Shown one piece after another: positions 7,906 through 37,640 of a stretch of DNA of 64,000 bases; positions within the stretch are counted from its first letter, which is position 1, and the number at the start of each line of letters is the position of its first letter. The notes under the pieces were generated by a model. It ran no database searches. It was not told where the DNA came from and saw nothing but the letters and a program-made list of their open reading frames with translations. The position numbers and the translations under genes are program-made. Source of the stretch: Dictyostelium discoideum. Taxonomy: Eukaryota. The stretch spans positions 6,240,001 to 6,304,000 of the forward strand of contig CM000151.3 in assembly GCA_000004695.1 (NCBI GenBank), in the 5' to 3' direction.

Positions 7906-8356
7906 TTACCAAGATAAAATTGTTGAACCCATTATGAAAATTGATGGAAGTGCTAAAAATAATTGAATGAGATTATTTTTGATTTGGTTCGATTTAAAAT
8001 AAAAGTATTCTGTTAAGAAATGACCTAAACCTGTTACAAATGTTAACCAAGTTAAGAAATATACAGTTCTATTTGTAATGTCAATTGAACATGCAATTGT
8101 TATTGATCCAGTTGTAAATATCCACAAAAAAAATATTCTTGAAATTAAACCTGAAAAATCTTTTATTTTTTCATATTAAAAAAAAATTATTAGTTTATAT
8201 TAACATTATATAATAAATAAAAAAAAACCATTTCATACTTTGTTTGTTTTTTCTTGAATAACCAACACTCATAAATTCAGGGTAGACTAAGCCAACAAAA
8301 GAACATAATATTCTAAAAAAACCAATAAATAATAACCAAGCCTGTAAATATTCCAT
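7906..8356 (-). CDS. erg28: ERG28-family small membrane protein, 2 exons (8239..8356, 7906..8150), about 120 aa
   Basis: Exon 1 reads MEYLQAWLLFIGFFRILCSFVGLVYPEFMSVGYSRKNKQ with donor GTATGA. An 88-bp AT-rich intron ends in tttttcAG. Exon 2 reads LISRIFFLWIFTTGSITIACSIDITNRTVYFLTWLTFVTGLGHFLTEYFYF..., which matches the ERG28/C14orf1 core (CAIDIHNKTLYHITLWTFLLALGHFLSELFVYG). The phases fit (1+2). Confidence 0.8.
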
Positions 8357-8648
8357 TTATCTTATCTTTTTAAAAATGATTTTTAATATTTATTTTTAAT
8401 ATTTTAAAATATAAATAGGAAAAAAAAAAAAAAAAAAAAAAAAATTAAAAAAATAAAAATAAACAGTTTGTTTTTGCTCAAATTTTAAAAACAGTTTATT
8501 ATAAACTGTTTTTTTAATCAAACAAATTAAATAACATTTTTAAAAAAAAAAAAAAATGGTTATGATTACTTTTTTTTAATTATTAAATTTTATTTATTAT
8601 TTATTTTAAAATGAGGGTGAATTTACATTATTGAAATTGAGAATTAAT

Positions 8649-10095
8649 TTAAACTTCTTGTAATAGAGAAGCATCTTTCATCTCAATATCTTTTGTTTGT
8701 TTTTGTATTATAGATTCTTTTTCTTTTTCCTTTTCTTTTTCTTTTTCTTTTTCTTTTTCTTTTTCTTTTTCTTTTTCTTTTTCTTTTTCTTTTTCCTTTT
8801 CCTTTTCCTTATCTTTATCTATTTCTTTATTATTTACAATATTATCTTTTTCCTTTTCAAAAGTTTTATCTTTTTCAACAATACAATTATCATCTTTTGA
8901 AGTTATTGAATTTGTTGGAATAGTTAATTTAATATCATTAGGTGATCTTGGTGGTGAATTTGAAGAGAGTGATAATGGAGGAGGAGCACCACCACCTGAT
9001 GAATTTGTTAATGAATTTCCAACAGAAGTTGATGCACTATTCGAAGAGTTATTATTATTACCACCGCCACTACCACCGCCACCACCACTACCACTTGTAT
9101 TACCACTACCACTATTACTAGTGGTTGCTGATAAAGATGAATGATGTAGTTGATGTTGTTTCAATAGTAGATTATGTGATGGTGTATTTAATGGACTATT
9201 ACCAATTCCAAAAGATGATAATAAAGGAGAAGGTGATGGTGAAGGTGATATAAATGGGGTTAATGCCGGAGAACCAATTGGTGATAAAGATGATTTCGAA
9301 CTCTTATTATTTCTTTGAATCAACCATTGTTTTTCAACTTCATTATGGAATTTTATTGCTTGATATTGATGAGTTGAATCCAATTTTGTTTTTTGTTCTT
9401 TATGAGTTTGTTGAAGTTTTTCTTGATCTTCTTTAAATTTAATTTGTAATTTTGTCACCAACTCATCATTTGATTGTTCCTGAGCGGCTAATTTATCCTT
9501 TTCAAAAGTTTCCAATAATAAATTATTTGATTCTTCTTGTTTAGCCAATAAATTTATTAATTGAATCTTTTGATATTGTTCTAACTTTTGGAATGCATTT
9601 TGTTTAAAACTTAAAAAATCTGGATTATCTGAAACATTTTCACTTCCTCCTACAGATGTCTTTGTTGGTGTCGAATTTGCGGATAATAATGATGATGTTG
9701 ATGACGTTGAAGTTTGTTGGTCATCTTTTTTACTATTTACACTATTTACAATTATATGAGGACCATTTTTTGGTGTTTGAATTGGTGTTGGTTGTGTTGA
9801 TGAATCTTTATTTGATGATGATGACGATAATTGTTGTGCTTGTTGTGCTTGTTGTTGATGTTGTGCTTGTTGTTGTGCTTGTTGTACTTGTTGTGATATT
9901 GATTTTTGAACAATATCTTGCCATTGTTTATATGATTCGATCCAATTTTGCATATTTACATAATTTGGGTAATCAAATTGATGATTTAAACCCTCAGCGG
10001 TACTGACACTATTTCTTCTTGGATTTAAGAATGGAGATTTACCAGGCATTGGAGATAATGGTACTTGATTTCCAAAGAATTGCATTGGATTATAC

Positions 10096-25976: not shown

Positions 25977-27838
25977 TTAATCATCAGCATCGGTTGGACC
26001 CATTTTTGGTGGTTTTGGACCACCAGCTGGTTTAGACATAATGATTTGATCGACTCTTAAAACGGTGTTAGCAGTGTTTGTAGCTAATTTAATTGCGAAA
26101 AGTTTTGAAGCAAAAGCGTCTAAAACATCCATTTCGAGTACAGATTTTGGTTGACCAGATTCAATATCTAAACCATAATTGGTATTACCTTTGGTATGAG
26201 CTGCATAAATATTTGAGATTGCTTTTGAGGAGTCGTGACCACTAGTTTCAGCAAGAGTTCTTGGAATGATTTCGAAAGCTTCAGCGTATTGACGAATTGA
26301 ATATTGAGAGAGACCTGGTGTAGCATCGGCAAAAGCTTGGAGTTTACGTGAGGCTTCAATTTCAAAAGCACCAGCACCAGCTAAGAATCTACCATCTTTA
26401 CACATACCTTTGAAAACGTTGACACCATCATCGATGGCACGTTCAATATCATCGAGAATGTTATTGGTTGAACCACGAACTACAATGGTGGAGATTTCAC
26501 TTTCTTCTTTATTTTGACGGAAAATACAACATTTGGTTGAACCGATCTCTTCAACGAGTACTTCATCACAGTAACCCAATTCCTCAGGGATAGGGGCACC
26601 CAATTTAACTAATGGAGTTGCACCGATTGCTTTACAAACACGACGTAATTGGAATTTAGATTGAATACGAACCAACATGATTTTGAATCTTTCAATGTAA
26701 TGTAAAGCCAATTCGGAAACGGTTGAACCAGAGATGATCACTTTGACACCGGTATTTGCGATGGCAGTGATTGTCTCTCTGATTGAATCTTCCTCACCTT
26801 TGGAGAATTGTAACAATTCATCCTCGTTGGTGATCAATACTTTACCAGTGGTTTCAGTACGACCTAAATCGATACCCATTGTGAAAACGGCGATTTTTGC
26901 TTTCTCCATTCTTTTGATGGTACCTTCGGCATCCATTGGGATGACGAAACCTTTGATTACACTTGTATCAGTTACGCCACCACCTGGAATCTTGGTGACT
27001 CTAACATTATCGATATTGAAATTAACTGCTTTCTTTGGTAAAACTTGAAGACATGCATTGGTGATAATCTCTGATAAAAATTCCTCATATCCATATTGTT
27101 TACTTGCGATGGCTGATTTCAAACATTTTGTAACCTCCTTCTTATCTGTAATATCCTTTAAATTGTATACAATCATTGATTCAATAATCTCTTGAAGTTT
27201 AGCACCTGCTTTTTCAAAACCAGTTATAATTTCACTTGGGTGAAGTCCCATCTCTAATAAAGTTGCTGCTTTTTGTAAAAATTCACCTGTTAATGTAACA
27301 ACATAATTTGTACCATCTCCCATCTAAAAATTATTAATAATAAAAAAATAATAATAATAATAATAATAAATATTGAAAATATTATAATTCAATTTTAAAA
27401 ATTGTATTGATTTGTAATTTTTTTTTTTTTTTTAGAAATAATAAATTTTTTAGGTTAAAATTTTCATTTAAATAAAAATAAAAATGGTGGTTAGTAATCA
27501 ATATTGTAGTGTTTAGATTTATAAATTTTGAGAGAGAGAAAAAAAAAAAAAAAAAAAAAAATATTACATACTTCTTGTTCTTGCATTTGAGCAGCCATAA
27601 CCAACATTTTTGCAGCTGGATGAATAACATCTAATTCTCTAATGATGGTTGCGGCATCATTTGTAACAAATAATTTCTCTAAATGATTGATGATCATTTT
27701 ATTCATACCATTTGGACCTAATGATGTTCTTGTAATCTCTGATAATTGTTTGGTTGCATCAATATTTCTTAAGATTGCTTCATCTTTGCCTGCAAAATGC
27801 TTTGCACCATCTTTTAACATATCAGTTAATCCTAACAT
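25977..27838 (-). CDS. cct8: T-complex chaperonin subunit theta (CCT8), 2 exons (27572..27838, 25977..27323), about 537 aa
   Basis: Exon 1 reads MLGLTDMLKDGAKHFAGKDEAILRNIDATKQLSEITRTSLGPNGMNKMIINHLEKLFVTNDAATIIRELDVIHPAAKMLVMAAQMQEQE with donor GTATGT. Exon 2 (acceptor tttttAG) reads MGDGTNYVV... and ends ...LRVDQIIMSKPAGGPKPP, the diagnostic CCT-theta C-terminus. Collinear with human CCT8. Confidence 0.9.
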
Positions 27839-28497: not shown

Positions 28498-29319
28498 ATG
28501 GTATTATATATTATTGGATTGGGATTAGGTGATGAAAAAGATGTAACAATTAAAGGATTTGAAGCAATAAAGAAATCAAGTAAAATTTATTTAGAAGCAT
28601 ATACATCATTATTAGGTGGATCAACATCAATTGAAGCATTAGAGAAATTTTATGAAAAAAAGATTATTATAGCCGATAGAGAAATGGTTGAATCAGGTTG
28701 CGAAGAAATGTTAAAAGAATCAACAGAGAATGATGTTTCATTTTTAGTTGTAGGTGACCCATTCGGAGCAACAACTCATACAGATTTAGTTATTCGTGCT
28801 AAAGAATTATCGATTCCAGTTAAAGTGATTCACAATGCCTCAATTATGAATGCAATTGGTTGTTGTGGTCTTCAATTATATAGTTATGGTCAAACCATAT
28901 CAATGGTATTCTTTACAGAAACCACCAAACCCGATAGTTGGTACGATCGTGTTAAAATCAATCGTGTCAATGGTATGCATACCCTCTGCTTATTAGATAT
29001 CAAAGTTAAAGAACAATCAATTGAAAATATGTGTCGTGGTCGTTTAATTTATGAACCACCAAGATTCATGACCGTTAATCAATGTATTGAACAACTCTTG
29101 GAAATTGAAGAAATACGTAAAGAAAAAGTTTACGATCAAGATACCCTATGCATTGGTTTATCTCGTGTTGGTCAAGATGATCAACAAATCATTTCTGGTA
29201 CTATGAAAGAATTATTAGATGTTGATTTTGGTGCTCCACTTCATTCTTTTATCATTTGTGGTGATATGCATTTCATTGAAAAAGAATATTTTGAAACTTT
29301 TAGAGTTAAAAAAAATTAA
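28498..29319 (+). CDS. dph5: Diphthine synthase (diphthamide biosynthesis methyltransferase), 273 aa
   Basis: MVLYIIGLGLGDEKDVTIKGFEAIKKSSKIYLEAYTS...FLVVGDPFGATTHTDLVIRAKELSIPVKVIHNASIMNAIGCCGLQLYSYGQ is collinear with the DPH5 family. Confidence 0.9.
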   Translation: MVLYIIGLGLGDEKDVTIKGFEAIKKSSKIYLEAYTSLLGGSTSIEALEKFYEKKIIIADREMVESGCEEMLKESTENDVSFLVVGDPFGATTHTDLVIRAKELSIPVKVIHNASIMNAIGCCGLQLYSYGQTISMVFFTETTKPDSWYDRVKINRVNGMHTLCLLDIKVKEQSIENMCRGRLIYEPPRFMTVNQCIEQLLEIEEIRKEKVYDQDTLCIGLSRVGQDDQQIISGTMKELLDVDFGAPLHSFIICGDMHFIEKEYFETFRVKKN

Positions 29320-29415: not shown

Positions 29416-30217
29416 TTATTGTTGTTGGTTGTTGATTTTAATATCTACCATTTCAATTGGATAACCTCTAGCAGTAATTGATTGATGGGAACCTGGTTGG
29501 AGATCAAAAACATTTACACCTCCAAATACTTTTTTGATATGATCTTCAATTTCTTTAATTTCATTTTGTTTTTCAACTTCTTTTTCTTTAGTTTGAATAC
29601 GTCTTTTAATTAAATAAATTGCACTACCAACCAATGCTGAACAACCTATAAAACTACAAATTACAATTCCAGAAATTGCACCATCAGATAAAGAGGGACT
29701 TTCATCAGGAATACTTTCAACTCCTTCATTTTGGCCAGTAAACATATCAATAAATTCTCCATGTGATAAGTCACTAAATTTATTCAATGATACTTTTCAA
29801 AAAAAAAAAAAAAAAAAAATTATTATTATTTATATCACATTTTAAAAATTATATTTTAAATTAAAATTAATACATACATGTTGGAATATTAGAACTTGGT
29901 AAAGTAATAGAAATCGATGGTAAAATTACATCATTGATTGATTGTAATTTTCTTCCAAATGATGATTCAATGAATGAATTTTGGATATCATCTTCAAATG
30001 TTACAGTGACAAACTTTACATTTTTATTATTGGAATTTTGAATTTGGATACAATTCTCTTTGAAATTTTCAAATTTTTCATTTATTACTGAAGAATGATA
30101 TTTTACATCGTATGCATCCATCCAAGAATTAAATACTGGCCAATATTTATCATTAATTTCGTTTGAATTAATTAAACTTGGAAATATAAAAAATAAAATT
30201 AATAATAATTTAATCAT
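29416..30217 (-). CDS. Type-I membrane protein with an extracellular cathepsin-propeptide-inhibitor (I29)-like domain, 2 exons (29878..30217, 29416..29792), about 238 aa
   Basis: Exon 1 has a signal peptide MIKLLLILFFIFPSLINS, then YWPVFNSWMDAYDVKYHSSVINEKFENFKENCIQIQNSNN (I29-like F.SW...Y.K.Y.S..E...RF..FK.N..I). Donor GTATGT in phase 1; acceptor gaaaAG. Exon 2 reads LSLNKFSDLSHGEFIDMFTG (the I29 N.FaDLt.eEF motif), followed by a TM segment ISGIVICSFIGCSALVGSAIYLI and a basic cytoplasmic tail. Confidence 0.5.
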
Positions 30218-30825
30218 TTTTTTTTAGAATTTTAGTTTTAATAATATTATACAATTTTTTATTTATTTATATATTTAAGATATTAAAATAAAACAAAATA
30301 AAAAAATAATAGATTATTTATAATTTTTTTTTTTTTTTTTTTTATTTTTTTTTTCTTTTTAATTTAAATTATTATTTTTTATATAAATTTTTATTTGTAA
30401 AATTAAATTTGCGTATAATTTAAATTATTTGAAAAATAACATATATTAAGATGAATCTAATTATCTTTTTGTTTTTTGATTTAAAAAAAACTTAAATTTT
30501 TTTTTTTAATCCTAGTTTGGGGGAATCTTTTTATTAAATGATTTTTGAAAAAAAAAAAAGTACAGTTTTAAAACGAATTTGTTTTTTGAAAAAACTTTTT
30601 TGGAATTTGCACCACAATTATTATTATAATACATTTTATTTATTTCTACACATATTATTTGAATTGTTTTTATTATTATTATTTTTTTAAAATTTTTTTT
30701 TAAGTCTTATAAAAAAAAAAAGTATAAATTAAAAAAAAAAGTTTAATAAAAAAAAAAAAAAAAAAAGATTTAATAAAATAAAATTAAAATAATCTTTGTA
30801 TAAAAAAAAAAAAAAAAAAAATAAA

Positions 30826-32073
30826 ATGTCCACAAAATATTTAATAATATTATTAATTTTAACAATTTCCAAAATTTCCGGATTTAATGAAATTGAACAA
30901 AAATCAATAGAAAATTATCATAATTACATAAGAATTAAAGCTAAATTATTTGGAGCAGAACCAAAGTCACCACTGAATCAAGTTAAATGGTCAAATGATA
31001 TTGCAAATAAAGTTCAAACATTTGTTAGTCAATGTAATTTAGGAGTACCACAAAATATTGAAGGAACTGGTTTTGCATTGTTTAAAGTGATGGGAAAAGA
31101 GTTTGATCCAGTTGACATTTTAAATAGAACTTTTGAAAGATCAGCACCACTATACGATTGGAGTACTGGTAATTGTAAACCTGATCAATGCTGCGACACT
31201 TATCAAACTATGATATGGAATACTTCAACTTCTGTTGGTTGTGCAAGTTCATACTGTTCAAGTGGTAGTTATAATTTCTTTGTCTGTGGATATTATCCAA
31301 TTGGTAATTTTGCAGGTATTAAGCCATATACACCAAAAGTGCAATCACAACTCACCGAAAATGGCAGCGGCGGCGGCGACACTAAATTAGAACCATCAGT
31401 AAAACCAATTTCAATTAATGTTTCATCTCGATTTATTTTACCAACAAGTTCAACTGGCGATGTTGATTGGAAATCATTAGGATTTGTAACATCAATTAAA
31501 AATCAAGGTCAGTGTGGTGGTTGTTACTCATTTGCAACATGTGCAGCATTGGAAAGTGCTTATTTAATTAAAAATAATCTTCCAAATACTGATATTGATT
31601 TATCAGAGCAAAACTTTGTTAGTTGTGTAAATTATGGTTGTGGTGGTGGAAATGGTCAATCATGTTTAGATAAATTAAAATCCACTGGTATTATGTATGA
31701 AACTAGTTATCCATATAAAGCTGTTACTGGAAGTTGTCCAAATGTAATTCAAAGTCCACAACCATTTAAATGGACAGGTTATTCAAATATTCAAGGTAAT
31801 AAAGAAGCATTTTTAAATGCATTAAAATCAGGTCCAATCTATGCATCATTATATGTGGATAGTGGTTTCCAACTTTATAAATCTGGAATTTATTCATGTT
31901 CTCAATCTTCAACACCCAATCATGCAATTACAATCGTTGGTTACTCAAGTGCTGATAATTCCTATTTAATTAAAAATAGTTGGGGTACAATTTATGGAGA
32001 ATCCGGTTATATTCGTTTAAAAGAAGGTTCATGTAATTTATATTCTTTTACTGGTATAACTACACAAGTTTAA
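30826..32073 (+). CDS. Secreted fusion of an SCP/CAP/PR-1 domain with a papain-like (C1) cysteine protease domain, about 415 aa; no classical propeptide
   Basis: Signal peptide MSTKYLIILLILTISKISG. The CAP motifs are YHNYIR, W...A.KVQTFVSQC, GCASSYC...FFVCGYYPIGN. The C1 catalytic domain reads DWKSLGFVTSIKNQGQCGGCYSF (Gln and Cys), NHAITIVGY (His), NSWG (Asn). I chose the ATG at 30826, not the poly-Lys start at 30796. Confidence 0.75.
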   Translation: MSTKYLIILLILTISKISGFNEIEQKSIENYHNYIRIKAKLFGAEPKSPLNQVKWSNDIANKVQTFVSQCNLGVPQNIEGTGFALFKVMGKEFDPVDILNRTFERSAPLYDWSTGNCKPDQCCDTYQTMIWNTSTSVGCASSYCSSGSYNFFVCGYYPIGNFAGIKPYTPKVQSQLTENGSGGGDTKLEPSVKPISINVSSRFILPTSSTGDVDWKSLGFVTSIKNQGQCGGCYSFATCAALESAYLIKNNLPNTDIDLSEQNFVSCVNYGCGGGNGQSCLDKLKSTGIMYETSYPYKAVTGSCPNVIQSPQPFKWTGYSNIQGNKEAFLNALKSGPIYASLYVDSGFQLYKSGIYSCSQSSTPNHAITIVGYSSADNSYLIKNSWGTIYGESGYIRLKEGSCNLYSFTGITTQV

Positions 32074-32282: not shown

Positions 32283-32962
32283 TTAAGTTGAACCAAAAAC
32301 ATATTCACTAACTTTTGAAAAGAATGATGGTCTTGAGGGTGTTCCTAATGCATTATTATTTGAAAATGATTGTGGGTCATAATCTGATCTTGCTGGATGA
32401 TATTTCTTTTCAATTGTTTTCAAAGAGTGATCACCAAGTTGTGATGGTTGTGCTTTAATTGGATCTGATTCATTTCTCTGTTAATTTTTTTCAAAAAAAA
32501 TAAATAAATAAAAAATAATAAAAATAAAAAAGAGTTAGTTTTTTTTTTTAAAACTTTGGAATTATATAATTAATAAATACATACAATTTTTTCTTTACAA
32601 GGTACAATACCAATCATACAATTTCCTAAAATTAAACCATTCTTTTTTAATAAATCGATTGAAGAATATTCAGATTCAAATTTCAAATAAATCCAATTAC
32701 AATTTGGTTGTTGAGGATATTCAATCTCAATGATATTACCATATTTTGAGAGTTCATCAACGATTAAATCCGTTTTATCGTGAGAGAAACCAAATACAGT
32801 TAACCAACGTTTATCATATTTATCTAAAAACATTTGAGTAATTTGTTGAGATGCTACACTTTGAACGAAAATATTACTAGTTGTTGGTGTAATTAAATTA
32901 TTATTATTATTATTTTGTTGTTGTTGATTATTATAAGGTGTTGATTGTTGTTGTAGTTGTAG

Positions 32963-32993
<31 letters not shown>

Positions 32994-33026
32994 AGTTGTT
33001 GTAGTTGTTGTTGTTGTTGTAAATGA

Positions 33027-33105
<79 letters not shown>

Positions 33106-33958
33106 GGAATTGTTGTTGATTATAAATATTTAAAAATGGTGAATTCGTAGCTACTGTGCTATTATTATATACATTATTTTGTAATGGTGTTTGTGATTGA
33201 TTATTATTATTATAGAATGATGGTTGTTGATTATAAATACTTTGATTTAAATCTTGAGCTGATAAAGGTGATGATGTCTGTTGTTGTTGTTGTAATTGTT
33301 GATATTGTTGTTCAACTTGATTATATAGATAATTTTGAGTATTTTGTTGATGCTGTATATTTGCATTTCTTTGATGTAATCTTTGTTGTTGATTTTGTTG
33401 ATGTTGTGATAGAATCTGTTGTTTCAATTGCTTTGGTTCTTCATAGATCGAATTCACAGGAATTGATAATAAATCATTATTTTGATTATTTATTTGATTA
33501 TTGTTATTATTATTGTTGTTACTATTATTATTGCTATTGTTATTATTGTTATTATTATTATTATTATTACTATTATTTGTACCACTTATACTTGTACCAA
33601 TACCAAAACGTCTATTTAAATTTGGTGTATTCATATTTATATTTGAATTACCATCTTGATAACCAAAAGCATGATTTGAGGATGGACTTGATGATGATGA
33701 TGATGATGGTGGTTGATATGGTCCCATTGATCTACTATAATATGAAGAGTATGGTGTACCTGGTGTTTGAGAATTTGATGGACTTTGCATTTGATTTATT
33801 GGTGAATTAGTACTATGTGGTGGACTTGATAAATTACCAATATTATTCTTATCCTCATTACTCTTATCTTGTGATGAAAATATTCTACTTGGTATATATT
33901 GTCTATTTATTTCATTTGAATTTGAATTTAATTTTGATGAACTTGCATTTAAATTCAT
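32283..33958 (-). CDS. nup35: Nucleoporin Nup35/Nup53 (MPPN) homolog, 2 exons (32585..33958, 32283..32477), about 522 aa
   Basis: The Q/N-rich N-terminal part is followed by an RRM-like domain RWLTVFGFSHDKTDLIVDELSKYGNIIEIEYPQQPNCNWIYLKFESEYS...GNCMIGIVPCKEKI (compare human WVTVFGFP...IGVKPC) with donor GTATGT. Acceptor ttaacAG. The terminal exon ends ...SFFSKVSEYVFGST, the conserved C-terminal amphipathic helix (compare human SKAMEYMFGW). Confidence 0.75.
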
Positions 33959-34207: not shown

Positions 34208-35509
34208 TTATTTTTCTTCACTATTTTGGTTATCAATAGTTGTAGTTGAAATTGTAGTGGTAGTTGTAGTAGTAGTAGTATTACTATTACTATTATTATT
34301 ATTATTATTTAAATCAGATGGAAAATAACTAATACCTTCACAAGTTATTAAATTTGTTTCTTCACCAGATTGAGTATTATTAGTTAATGGTGTAATTGTA
34401 AAAATAGCACCAGTCATTAAAGATGTTATATGAATTGAAGTTTGAGTATGTAATGAGATTGGACCAGTTTTAATTTGACTTTTACCTTTTGCTAAAGCCA
34501 TGAAAATGATTAATTGATCTTGAAGGTATTCATCCATACAACCACCATCTTGCAAATCTTTGAGTAAAGAATTTGCAGCATCTTCTGCGACTTTTTCAGC
34601 AGGTACACCAATTGCACCATTTCCAGTTGCACCAAATATACAACCTTGGTCGGTGTATGCCCTAATTTCAATGAATGTACCATCACCAAAACTAAATTTA
34701 CTCACATCGATTAACTCTGTTTCAACATCCACCTTTTTAAAATCCTTTTTTATTAATTTCTTTGCAGTGTTATTCATCCTCTCTGCTACCAATGGTGATA
34801 TTCTAGGCGACGTGAAATAGGACTTGATTACAATTCTATTCACCTCACCCTTATTCACTATGGTGATTGGCGAGAGTGGTTGTGTGAGTGGTTGGGTTGT
34901 CAATGTGACAGCGCCGCCGCCCTTTGGGTAGAACCCTCTTTTATCAATACTCATCTCACATTTAAATCCCATAGTTGTTGCAATTGGTAGGAAAACATTT
35001 TGAATATAGTCTGCAGCTGGTGCAAAATCACAATTTGTTCCACCACCCAATACCATCTTTGTGGAATGTGGTGCAAAGATTAAACATGGTAATGAAACTT
35101 GAATCATCAAACAAATACTACCAGCTGTTTTAGTATCAGCTTCAATTACACCATCATCTTGAATTGTCTTTTGTGTTGGTTGATAATAAAGTTTACATGA
35201 ACCAACACTACAACCTGTTAAATGAGCTTTAAATAAACGTGACATTAAATCAATACCAGCTTTATGTTGATTTTTCAATCCTGGTTGATCTCTATTATAC
35301 CTAATCTTTTCAATTGAAATGGCTTTATTAAATAATGATGCTAATGCAACTGAATTTCTTAAAATTTGACCACCACCTTCTAAAATTGATCCATCAATTT
35401 TAAAATCTGGTTTTTCTTCAATTGTTTGTTGTTGTTGTGCTACTGTGGTATCATTATTTGTTTTTGATTTTTTAAATTGATTTTTATTATAATTTTTATT
35501 TTTACCCAT
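34208..35509 (-). CDS. rtcA: RNA 3'-terminal phosphate cyclase (RtcA family), 433 aa, single exon
   Basis: IDGSILEGGGQILRNSVALASLFNKAISIEKIRYNRDQPGL at the N-terminus and ...DQLIIFMALAKG...ISLHTQTSIHI near the C-terminus (the cyclase His-containing motif); collinear with the RtcA/Rcl1 family. Confidence 0.8.
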   Translation of the reverse strand: MGKNKNYNKNQFKKSKTNNDTTVAQQQQTIEEKPDFKIDGSILEGGGQILRNSVALASLFNKAISIEKIRYNRDQPGLKNQHKAGIDLMSRLFKAHLTGCSVGSCKLYYQPTQKTIQDDGVIEADTKTAGSICLMIQVSLPCLIFAPHSTKMVLGGGTNCDFAPAADYIQNVFLPIATTMGFKCEMSIDKRGFYPKGGGAVTLTTQPLTQPLSPITIVNKGEVNRIVIKSYFTSPRISPLVAERMNNTAKKLIKKDFKKVDVETELIDVSKFSFGDGTFIEIRAYTDQGCIFGATGNGAIGVPAEKVAEDAANSLLKDLQDGGCMDEYLQDQLIIFMALAKGKSQIKTGPISLHTQTSIHITSLMTGAIFTITPLTNNTQSGEETNLITCEGISYFPSDLNNNNNNSNSNTTTTTTTTTISTTTIDNQNSEEK

Positions 35510-35917: not shown

Positions 35918-37640
35918 TTAAGTTGAATTTCTTCTTCTATGATTTGAATTAAAGGGTTTTGCTTCTGCTAAATAATTTTTATTTAATTCCAAAAGACTTT
36001 GAAAGTTTACATATAAAAAGTCATCAAAATTTGCATTTGTATTTTGATTGATTGTAATTGAATCTAAATTTGATGTTGTTGCAGTTGCAGTTGCAGTAGT
36101 GGAAGAAGTTGATGGAGGTGAAGTTGTTAAAATAGTGGAAGATTCCTTATTTTGATTTTGATTTTGAACAAAAGGTTTACAAGATTCAGCGAAATCATCA
36201 GAAACTTTATAAATTTCTTTTCTTGGATCAAAGTAACTTGTATCTTGGAGATTTTCAATCTTTGGTTTAAAGTATGGTTCTTGAGTTAAAATTGTTTTCC
36301 AATTTATTGATTTAAAGAATGGATGAGATTTAATTTCTTCAGCACCATTAAAACCTAATCTTTGTCTTGGGTCTAAAGCTAACAATTTATCAATTAAATC
36401 TCTTGCTTCAGGACTCATATCTTCAGGCCAAGAAATATTTCTTTGAAGAATATTTTGAAAAGTTTCTTGAACACTTGAACCATTAAATGGAGAAACTCCA
36501 CAAAGAAATTCATAAAGTATAACACCTAATGAAAACCAATCAGCTGATGCACCATGACCAATTCCTAAAAGAATTTCAGGTGCTAAATAATCTGGTGTAC
36601 CAACACAACTTAATTTTCTATGTATATTATGTGGTGGTAATGGTGGTGTTGTTTGTTGTTGTTGTTGAGATTGTTGTTGAGATTGTTGACCAGTAGTTGT
36701 AGTGGTTGTAGTTGTAGTAGTTGTAGGAATATTTGAAATTGGTTGTTGATTAATTGGTGGTGGTGGTATAAATCCTTTTACACCCATCATCATTGGAGAT
36801 ATTGGTTTATCACTATTCAATAAATTTAATGAAGGAATTGATGGTGAAGATGATGCTGAAAATAATGACTTAGATTGAGCTAATGATAATAATTTCTTTT
36901 CTTTCTTTGCTGGTATTGCAGTATTGCTTGGAATTGGAGTTTCAGTATTAATAACATGACCACCTACCATCGTTGCTCCAGTTGTATTGTTGTTATTGTT
37001 ATTGTTATTTGTACTACTAATATTTGAACCAATAGTATTAGAACCACCAATATTTGATACTGATGATGATGATGATGATTGATTATTTTTACCAGATAAA
37101 GTTGGACTAAAATAAGAAGGTGGTACAACAGTTTGTCTATCTAATAATCCAACCTTACTAAGACCAAAATCTGTTAATTTTATATGGCCTTTCTTATCTA
37201 TTAAAAGATTATCAGGTTTAACATCACGATGAACAATACCATGACTATGTAAATATTCTAATGCCAAGACAGTCTCTGCAATGATCATTTTTGCCATATT
37301 TTCATCCATTGACCCTAACATTTGTAATAATGAAAAGCAATCACCACCTTGTAAATATTCCATAACCAAATAATAATATTCCTTTGTTTGAAATGAATAA
37401 TACATCTTTACAACAAATGGATTACTTGTATAGGCTAAAATATTTCTTTCAACTTTGACATGATCCAATTGGTTCTTCTTTATCATATCAGATTTCTTTA
37501 ATCTCTTTATTGCATAAATATCACCAGTTCTAATCTTTTTAGCTAAAAATACTTTTCCATATCCACCTTTTGTAATTGGTTTAATAAATTCAAAATCTGA
37601 TATAGTTGGTACACCTTTTGGTTTATATTCAATTTGCTAA

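Follow-up and report, generated by a model that had tools for sequence, protein, structure and literature searches.

Gene content of the locus

We analysed a stretch of 64,000 nucleotides of the Dictyostelium discoideum genome (GenBank assembly GCA_000004695.1, contig CM000151.3, positions 6,240,001 to 6,304,000 of the forward strand), referred to here as the window, with coordinates counted from its first nucleotide. Within it, two adjacent genes encode a papain-type protease without a propeptide and a membrane-anchored protein that carries a propeptide-like Inhibitor_I29 (I29) domain. The protease gene, DDB_G0276111, lies on the plus strand (30826..32073) and its partner, DDB_G0276113, on the minus strand (29416..30217). 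The original prediction, which had been made from the letters of the window, described the two genes as divergent neighbours about 600 bp apart, and we found their start codons to be separated by an AT-rich spacer of 608 bp (30218..30825), presumed to be a bidirectional promoter.

The coding sequence of DDB_G0276111 is intronless, and its product of 415 amino acids is 100% identical to the DDB_G0276111 protein of D. discoideum AX4. Its start was set at the ATG at 30826, in agreement with the database protein; a mechanical list of open reading frames (ORFs) had instead opened the frame with the TTG at 30796, which lies within an A-run (30796..30825, MYKKKKKKNK...). The signal peptide is followed by a CAP/SCP/PR-1 domain (residues 30-156, 30913..31293), which matches Pfam PF00188 with an E value of 2.3e-15 and 57.9 bits against a gathering score of 21.1. 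After a linker (residues 157-211, 31294..31458) comes a Peptidase_C1 domain (residues 212-404, 31459..32037; PF00112, E 4.2e-47, 161.5 bits), which places the protein in family C1A. The residues equivalent to the papain-like catalytic set Gln19/Cys25/His159/Asn175 are all present, namely Gln227, Cys233 (31522..31524), His366 (31921..31923) and Asn384 (31975..31977), within the motifs QGQCGGCYSF, NHAITIVGY and NSWG at residues 227, 365 and 384. They are retained in all 12 aligned paralogues and orthologues; in the family alignment Q227, C233, N365, H366 and N384 are invariant, and S385 and W386 differ in one member. Among solved structures its nearest relatives are plant papain-like enzymes, with ananain, chymopapain and papain as the best PDB matches, together with cathepsins K and L. 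The predicted arrangement of an intact catalytic triad context with a CAP domain in the place of the propeptide is thus borne out by the two Pfam matches, the motifs and the lack of an I29 match described below.

Absence of a prodomain from the protease chain

It is a textbook view that papain-family enzymes depend on a covalently attached prodomain for folding and latency. Typical cathepsin L-like proteins carry this prodomain as an N-terminal I29 domain, and a Pfam search of DDB_G0276111 returned no Inhibitor_I29 match at E ≤ 10. Nor did a six-frame scan of the 64-kb window with a hidden Markov model (HMM) of the family to which DDB_G0276113 belongs, run with filters off, reveal I29-like coding sequence elsewhere: the model matched both exons of DDB_G0276113 (E 1e-52 and 1e-37) and nothing else, the best remaining match having an E value of 0.08. 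We relied on this family HMM, and the two canonical propeptide queries that were also run against the window are approximate and indicative only.

The stretch between the CAP and protease domains, where a prodomain would be expected, shows no sign of one in Pfam, in structure prediction or in its rate of evolution. In an AlphaFold2 (AF2) model built from an alignment of 11 sequences, residues 158-200 score below 50 in the predicted local distance difference test (pLDDT), block means over residues 161-200 are ∼27-36, and residues 158-212 have no predicted secondary structure. Of all regions of the protease gene, the linker is under the weakest constraint, with a ratio of nonsynonymous to synonymous substitution rates (dN/dS) of 0.68; this and all other dN/dS values given here are for D. 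discoideum versus D. firmibasis. In paralogues of the type of gmsA (DDB_G0286015), the corresponding region is a Pro/Thr-rich spacer.

A normal propeptide encoded by an unrecognised upstream exon would have undone the original prediction. We rejected this possibility on the basis of the six-frame HMM scan, the predicted disorder of the linker and the N-terminus of the protein, which opens with its own signal peptide and is annotated in the same form in orthologues elsewhere. In T. lacteum, a Logan contig (L004, from ERR3252993, 1393 nt) is colinear with positions 7974..9366 of one locus (L003), covering the orthologous ORF with 27 nt upstream and 46 nt downstream. This contig resembles a transcript assembly, which is suggestive of expression of the T. 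lacteum gene, and its colinearity from 27 nt 5' of the ATG might likewise be taken to speak against an upstream propeptide exon in that species.

The membrane-anchored I29 protein

The minus-strand product is 238 amino acids long and 100% identical to DDB_G0276113; its exon structure was checked against the database protein (P0121). Exon 1 (29878..30217) encodes a signal peptide (residues 1-18), helices α1 and α2 of the I29 domain (∼20-65) and a dictyostelid-specific insert of ∼40 amino acids inside that domain (residues 66-110, 29888..30022). An 85-nt GT..AG intron (29793..29877) lies directly 5' of the (Q)SLNxFSDL motif, and exon 2 (29416..29792) encodes the GNFD-like strand and α3 (residues 114-134), a juxtamembrane segment, a glycine-rich transmembrane (TM) helix, the cytoplasmic tail and the stop codon. 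The TM helix (residues ∼150-174, 29611..29685) is followed by KRR, and the tail contains the motif H-Q-S-I-T-A-R (residues 216-222, 29467..29487), recognised by its conservation in the family.

The I29 domain of DDB_G0276113 matches PF08246 with an E value of 8.1e-12 and 45.7 bits, well over the Pfam gathering score of 24.4, so that the I29 assignment on which the original prediction depended is significant. The match spans residues 29-127 and all 59 positions of the profile (1-59/59), broken by the insert. Kyte-Doolittle hydropathy shows a signal-like N-terminal segment (1-19), a single TM segment (150-176, maximum 2.15) and a cytoplasmic tail of 62 amino acids, and the predicted succession of signal peptide, I29-like domain, TM helix and tail was thereby recovered in full. 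Since the signal-like N-terminus is combined with a single TM segment and KRR, the protein would have type I topology, with the I29 domain lumenal or extracellular.

We scored residue conservation over 20 members of this family, termed I29-TM here. Invariant positions are F29, K53, N55, N63, N117, E126 and F127, and nearly invariant ones W32, Y40, S120, D121 and L122; by inspection these coincide with positions of the I29 signatures ERFNIN and GNFD. DDB_G0276113 itself carries both signatures, as (V/E)x3Kx3Fx2Nx3Ix3N, in which the ERFNIN Arg is replaced by Lys, and SxNxFxD. In the tail, S218, I219, T220 and R222 are invariant and H216 nearly so, and we refer to the motif as HxSITAR. Among PDB entries, the prodomains matched by the family profile are those of pro-bromelain, procaricain, pro-papain and procathepsin H, together with the TgCPL propeptide. 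Residue-level alignments of the two best, pro-bromelain and procaricain, take in both halves of the I29 domain; the profile aligns a stretch of exon 2 of DDB_G0276113 to 'LGINQFTDMTNNEFIAQYTGG' in pro-bromelain entry 6u7d, a match that runs beyond the Pfam boundary into '...EFIAQYTGG'. The AF2 model of DDB_G0276113 has helices at residues 20-35, 42-65 and 124-132 with pLDDT of ∼80. The insert, which is carried by all dictyostelid members, contains two short AF2 strands, a nearly invariant P100 and an invariant P107, and has a dN/dS of 0.17; it might contact the CAP domain.

The TM helix of DDB_G0276113 contains four glycines (2-7 across the six helices counted), and G151, G155 and G159 are nearly invariant in the family. 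The pattern is that of a GxxxG/glycine zipper, with 'GAIVGIAVGG' in the partners of gmsA-type proteases. Weak profile matches of the helix to amyloid precursor protein (APP/C99) in the PDB were judged compositional, reflecting the glycine zipper only. Glycine-rich TM domains in Dictyostelium, such as that of SibA, require Phg1A/TM9 for surface delivery (PMC4510845), and the sequence of the DDB_G0276113 helix resembles the Phg1A/TM9-dependent TM domain of SibA.

Whole-gene dN/dS values are 0.28 for the I29-TM gene and 0.26 for the protease gene, and a ratio of ∼0.27 indicates purifying selection on both. Constraint is strongest in the GNFD-α3 segment (residues 111-134), with the lowest dN/dS of 0.08, while both the tail motif and the CAP domain have values of 0.16. 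The low ratio in GNFD-α3, together with the invariant I29 signature, is as would be expected if protease binding has been retained.

The same data bear on an account in which the protease is self-sufficient and regulated in cis by its CAP domain or linker, the I29-like ectodomain having been reused, for example in receptor or adhesion signalling through HxSITAR, and the two genes being co-regulated like other divergent Dictyostelium pairs. In favour of this account, some CAP-superfamily proteins are reported to be weak protease inhibitors (PI15/P25TI). The I29 domain has a large insert and an altered ERFNIN motif, no part of the I29-TM family is conserved more widely than the tail, and gmsA, which is gamete- and mating-type-specific and dispensable for mating (PMC4910948), hints at recognition-type biology. 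However, reuse of the ectodomain does not sit well with invariant I29 signature residues and a GNFD-α3 segment that is the most constrained part of the protein; the linker that would have to regulate the protease is unconstrained and predicted to be disordered; and Archamoebae join I29, C1 and the same tail in a single chain, as described below. We therefore regard this account as quite improbable.

Conservation of the head-to-head pair in dictyostelids

Synteny in other dictyostelids, a check suggested along with the original prediction, proved far stronger than expected. A gene whose product has Inhibitor_I29 as its only Pfam domain lies head-to-head with a gene for a CAP plus Peptidase_C1 (CAP-C1) protein at 12 of 12 loci in seven species, a count that takes in every dictyostelid I29-TM or CAP-C1 family gene whose locus was retrieved. 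D. discoideum contributes two pairs, that in the window and gmsA/DDB_G0286021 (L006); D. firmibasis (L002), D. purpureum (L001) and P. violaceum (L007) contribute one each, T. lacteum (L003, L008) and H. album (L010, L011) two each, and C. fasciculata three (L005, L009, L013). The pairing of CAP and C1 on one side with I29, TM helix and HxSITAR on the other holds at the window and the 11 other loci without exception among them. The spacer measures 55-891 bp at those 11 loci, or 258-891 bp when the doubtful gene model at one C. fasciculata locus (L009) is left out. Flanking genes are alike only within the D. discoideum complex, and they differ in all other species.

Two of the C. fasciculata models have features that call for comment. 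At L009 (2522..4945) the CAP-C1 model has 1.1 kb of introns, lies 55 bp from its neighbour and appears to include spurious 5' exons. At L005 (5978..7706) the I29-TM model of 307 amino acids has an N-terminus with a run of His and apparently a spurious 5' exon; the true start is probably 'MKKLLTILF...'.

According to both family searches D. discoideum AX4 has exactly two CAP-C1 genes and two I29-TM genes. The two families have diverged in parallel, their identity matrices being correlated with a Pearson r of 0.91. The gmsA-type protease and its I29 partner each cluster with the P. violaceum pair and not with their D. discoideum paralogues, and both types of pair are also found in T. lacteum, H. 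album and C. fasciculata. The mirrored matrices, the P. violaceum grouping and the presence of both types together indicate that duplication of the whole pair preceded the separation of these lineages and that the copies have stayed linked. An intron at the position found in DDB_G0276113 also interrupts the I29-TM genes of D. purpureum, D. firmibasis, T. lacteum, P. violaceum and C. fasciculata, as well as the neighbour of gmsA, and this shared position supports a single origin of the I29-TM family.

A single origin is also what one would see if the pair were a frozen relic, left by inverted duplication of an ancestral pro-cathepsin gene and the later loss of complementary domains, with products that are uncoupled today, and an inverted duplication would yield the head-to-head orientation directly. 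A neutral relic would not, however, be expected to remain adjacent at 12 of 12 loci and in several paralogous pairs, each retained independently, while flanking synteny decays, nor to be under purifying selection in both genes, and we give this explanation very little credence.

The membrane anchor in other amoebozoans

A HMMER search with the family profile returned 31 full-length representatives at E ≤ 1e-30. Outside the dictyostelids, I29-TM-HxSITAR proteins without the insert were found in Planoprotostelium fungivorum and in metagenomes. Other proteins match the TM helix and tail alone and end in 'G(V/I)(D/N)(V/I)x(N/D)...HxSIT(A/G)R'. This cassette, consisting of a glycine-rich TM helix, G(V/I)(D/N)(V/I)x(N/D) and HxSIT(A/G)R, occurs in Dictyostelia, Planoprotostelium, Planopodium and Archamoebae, and Pfam contains no model for it. 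It ends I29 plus Peptidase_C1 proteins of the Archamoebae Mastigamoeba balamuthi (P0187, P0196, P0197) and Mastigella eilhardi (P0284), and CAP-domain proteins of Planopodium desertum (P0227) and a metagenome (P0263, Reprolysin plus CAP). Mastigamoeba P0196, the Mastigella protein and both CAP proteins have in common a stalk ahead of the cassette, and most of the shorter tail-bearing proteins without a Pfam domain have the same juxtamembrane stalk.

Among amoebozoans the cassette is therefore carried by I29-C1 proteins, by CAP proteins and by proteins with I29 alone, the three extracellular modules that are split over two genes in dictyostelids. Sharing of one cassette by I29-C1, CAP and I29 proteins is support of the Rosetta-stone type for the view that the two dictyostelid products act together at the membrane. 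We also considered gene fission of the archamoebal anchored proteases as the origin of CAP-C1 and found it unsupported, their C1 domains lying near the bottom of the C1 matches. Three proteins that scored high against both the I29-TM profile and the C1 domain (P0177, P0183, P0193) were set aside as lepidopteran multi-copy cathepsin models whose scores are summed over repeated domains.

The Planoprotostelium I29-TM protein, PROFUN_08730 (P0176; L012, 8001..10719; 702 amino acids), looks like a fusion of two genes, with a complete protein of signal peptide and I29-TM-HxSITAR from about residue 515 ('MKATALLLLFAPLIVYSQ...') behind an unrelated Ser/Thr/Pro-rich N-terminal part.

The spread of the cassette raises the possibility that I29-TM acts at the membrane as an inhibitor or sorting receptor for ordinary cathepsins that carry I29, or for C1 proteases generally, with adjacency to CAP-C1 reflecting shared regulation or common ancestry only. 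Its occurrence on several kinds of ectodomain and the Planoprotostelium gene, which has no adjoining CAP-C1, would fit such a general role, as would the free-standing I29 proteins CTLA-2α, crammer and BCPI, which inhibit cathepsins encoded elsewhere in the genome (PMC4089206). On the other hand, a general inhibitor would not be expected to stay next to CAP-C1 at every retrieved dictyostelid locus despite reshuffled flanks, to be duplicated with it as a unit and diverge in step, or to be present as one gene per CAP-C1 gene in D. discoideum. Moreover, canonical cathepsins have their own prodomain, and it is the neighbouring protease that has none. On balance we consider a general inhibitor or receptor unlikely, although it is the strongest of the alternatives to a dedicated partner.

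A prodomain probably supplied in trans

The prodomains of C1A proteases are folding catalysts and tight inhibitors, also when they are supplied in trans. We consider it probable that the two genes form a conserved module in which a papain-type protease and its prodomain are made as separate proteins of the secretory pathway, the membrane-tethered prodomain acting in trans on the product of the neighbouring gene. DDB_G0276111 would enter the endoplasmic reticulum as a CAP-linker-C1 protein without a propeptide in cis, and DDB_G0276113, transcribed divergently from the 608-bp spacer and presumably co-expressed, would enter it as a type I membrane protein with its I29 domain in the lumen. There the I29 ectodomain would bind the C1 domain of its neighbour in trans, aiding its folding, blocking its active site and tethering it to the membrane. 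The glycine-rich TM helix and the HxSITAR tail, whose invariant SITxR is a candidate sorting or phosphorylation signal, might then set the destination of the complex, either the cell surface or endolysosomes, and active CAP-protease would be freed upon loss, cleavage or dissociation of the I29 domain.

Our more specific proposal is tentative, and we put its prospects at somewhat less than even. The pair may be a natural split zymogen in which I29-TM is an obligatory folding partner, latency factor and tether, routing the complex by means of a cytoplasmic HxSITAR signal conserved in amoebozoans; at least two such modules would have been intact since before the dictyostelid radiation, and the gmsA/DDB_G0286021 module would be deployed specifically in gametes.

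Several observations weigh against a prodomain acting in trans on its neighbour. The sole CAP-C1 and I29-TM proteins recovered from A. subglobosum (P0009, P0153) are tagged 072920 and 072990; the two genes may not be immediate neighbours, and this species is then a possible exception to the pairing. Both are partial models and lie on a common contig of 846 kb. Extra I29-TM paralogues fall outside the 12 loci, three in H. album (P0145, P0291 and P0292, tagged PPL_04816, PPL_11862 and PPL_11864, the last two being two locus tags apart) and one in C. fasciculata (P0147, DFA_00442). The I29-TM-SITAR module of Planoprotostelium fungivorum is likewise not adjacent to a CAP-C1 gene, and since this copy is unpaired the anchor protein can exist without adjacency. 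The dictyostelid CAP-C1 clade has no specific relationship to the archamoebal C1 domains, and the fusion evidence therefore holds for domain families and not for orthologues. On the structural side, the AF2 model of DDB_G0276113 has low overall confidence (mean pLDDT 55.7), and although the top 12 Foldseek matches of this model in the PDB are all C1 propeptides, none is significant (E ≥ 0.18). The insert immediately precedes the strand that touches the enzyme in canonical zymogens and may affect binding. Finally, only ∼17 residues lie between α3 and the membrane; these would need to fill the active-site cleft, but they are weakly conserved (dN/dS 0.50).

The gene pair is nevertheless a real and evolutionarily robust feature, and a prodomain acting in trans is a plausible mechanism for it on present sequence evidence. 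If it operates as proposed, a prodomain placed on a separate anchored protein throughout a lineage would offer a naturally occurring test case for chaperoning in trans and for activation confined to one compartment. It would also give a testable function to four D. discoideum genes that are uncharacterised or barely characterised, including the gamete-specific gmsA, and would define an unnamed cytoplasmic motif, HxSITAR with its glycine-rich TM helix, as a mark by which anchored C1 proteases and CAP proteins of several amoebozoan groups can be recognised. Dictyostelium is genetically tractable, and the hypothesis is therefore directly testable.

Neighbouring genes

The window is AT-rich, and ORFs near the pair contain poly-Q/N tracts. 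On the DDB_G0276113 side lie an ORF of the TP_methylase family, probably encoding diphthine synthase (28498..29319, plus strand), and a fragment of a TCP-1/cpn60 chaperonin subunit (25977..27323, minus strand), and both are syntenic in D. firmibasis (L002). On the protease side we found ORFs for a Nup35-type RRM protein with very long poly-Q/N tracts (32570..33958), an RNA 3'-terminal phosphate cyclase (34208..35509) and a protein kinase (35918..37486), all on the minus strand. These five flanking ORFs are ordinary housekeeping neighbours.

Comparison with known systems

The original prediction knew of no described system with this architecture, which holds in part. The library of papers that we searched had none naming DDB_G0276111, DDB_G0276113, DDB_G0286015 or DDB_G0286021, none joining Dictyostelium, cysteine protease, propeptide and CAP domain, and, among the papers listed, none on a membrane-anchored I29 protein in Dictyostelium; nor did we find the I29-TM partners, the pairing of the genes or the HxSITAR cassette described. 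What appears new here is the pairing of a propeptide-less CAP-protease with a membrane-anchored I29 partner. The combination of CAP and C1 has precedent, since gmsA and a dictyostelid-wide family share it, and free-standing propeptide-like inhibitors of the I29 type were known before.

The latter are mouse CTLA-2α/β, Drosophila crammer and Bombyx BCPI (MEROPS I29), in which, as in DDB_G0276113, the I29 domain is encoded apart from a protease domain; CTLA-2α, crammer and BCPI act in trans as inhibitors of cathepsin L-like enzymes (PMC4089206). These proteins are small and soluble, no tie to one particular protease gene is reported for them, and the proteases they inhibit retain prodomains of their own. 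DDB_G0276113 differs from them in its ∼40 amino acid insert, its TM anchor with a conserved tail of 62 residues, and its head-to-head arrangement with a protease gene that lacks a prodomain.

A parallel in genomic terms is SpeB-Spi of Streptococcus pyogenes, in which a gene for a propeptide analogue lies beside that of its cognate cysteine protease (PMC2873492, citing Kagawa et al. 2005). Both systems have a dedicated, co-located, prodomain-like inhibitor, the I29 domain being a homologue of C1A prodomains encoded 608 bp from DDB_G0276111. SpeB-Spi differs in being bacterial, in belonging to family C10 and not C1, in its operon-like and not divergent arrangement, and in that Spi has no membrane tether of the secretory pathway. 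SpeB, furthermore, keeps its own prodomain.

Within D. discoideum the nearest relative of the pair is that of gmsA, which encodes a CAP-linker-Peptidase_C1 paralogue ∼35% identical to DDB_G0276111, distinguished by a long Pro/Thr-rich linker, and which has its own head-to-head I29-TM partner, DDB_G0286021. What is known of gmsA is limited to a gamete- and mating-type-specific transcript, which was not essential for mating (PMC4910948), and the literature that we found mentions the gene only in passing and says nothing of a partner or of pairing. The archamoebal I29-C1-stalk-TM-HxSITAR proteins also hold a protease and its prodomain at the membrane by means of the same TM and tail cassette as DDB_G0276113. 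They do so in a single polypeptide, whereas in dictyostelids it is the prodomain protein that bears the anchor, the protease being made as a distinct, CAP-fused chain. Other membrane-anchored pro-cathepsins, likewise single chains, include the EhCP-B group of Entamoeba and falcipain-2/3 of Plasmodium, in which the membrane anchor lies in the prodomain.

With respect to gene arrangement, a precedent exists in Dictyostelium itself. The tgrB1 and tgrC1 genes are head-to-head, share a promoter region and encode two surface proteins that bind each other. Those proteins, however, are Ig/TIG-like allorecognition receptors and highly polymorphic, whereas the CAP-C1/I29-TM pair is under purifying selection.

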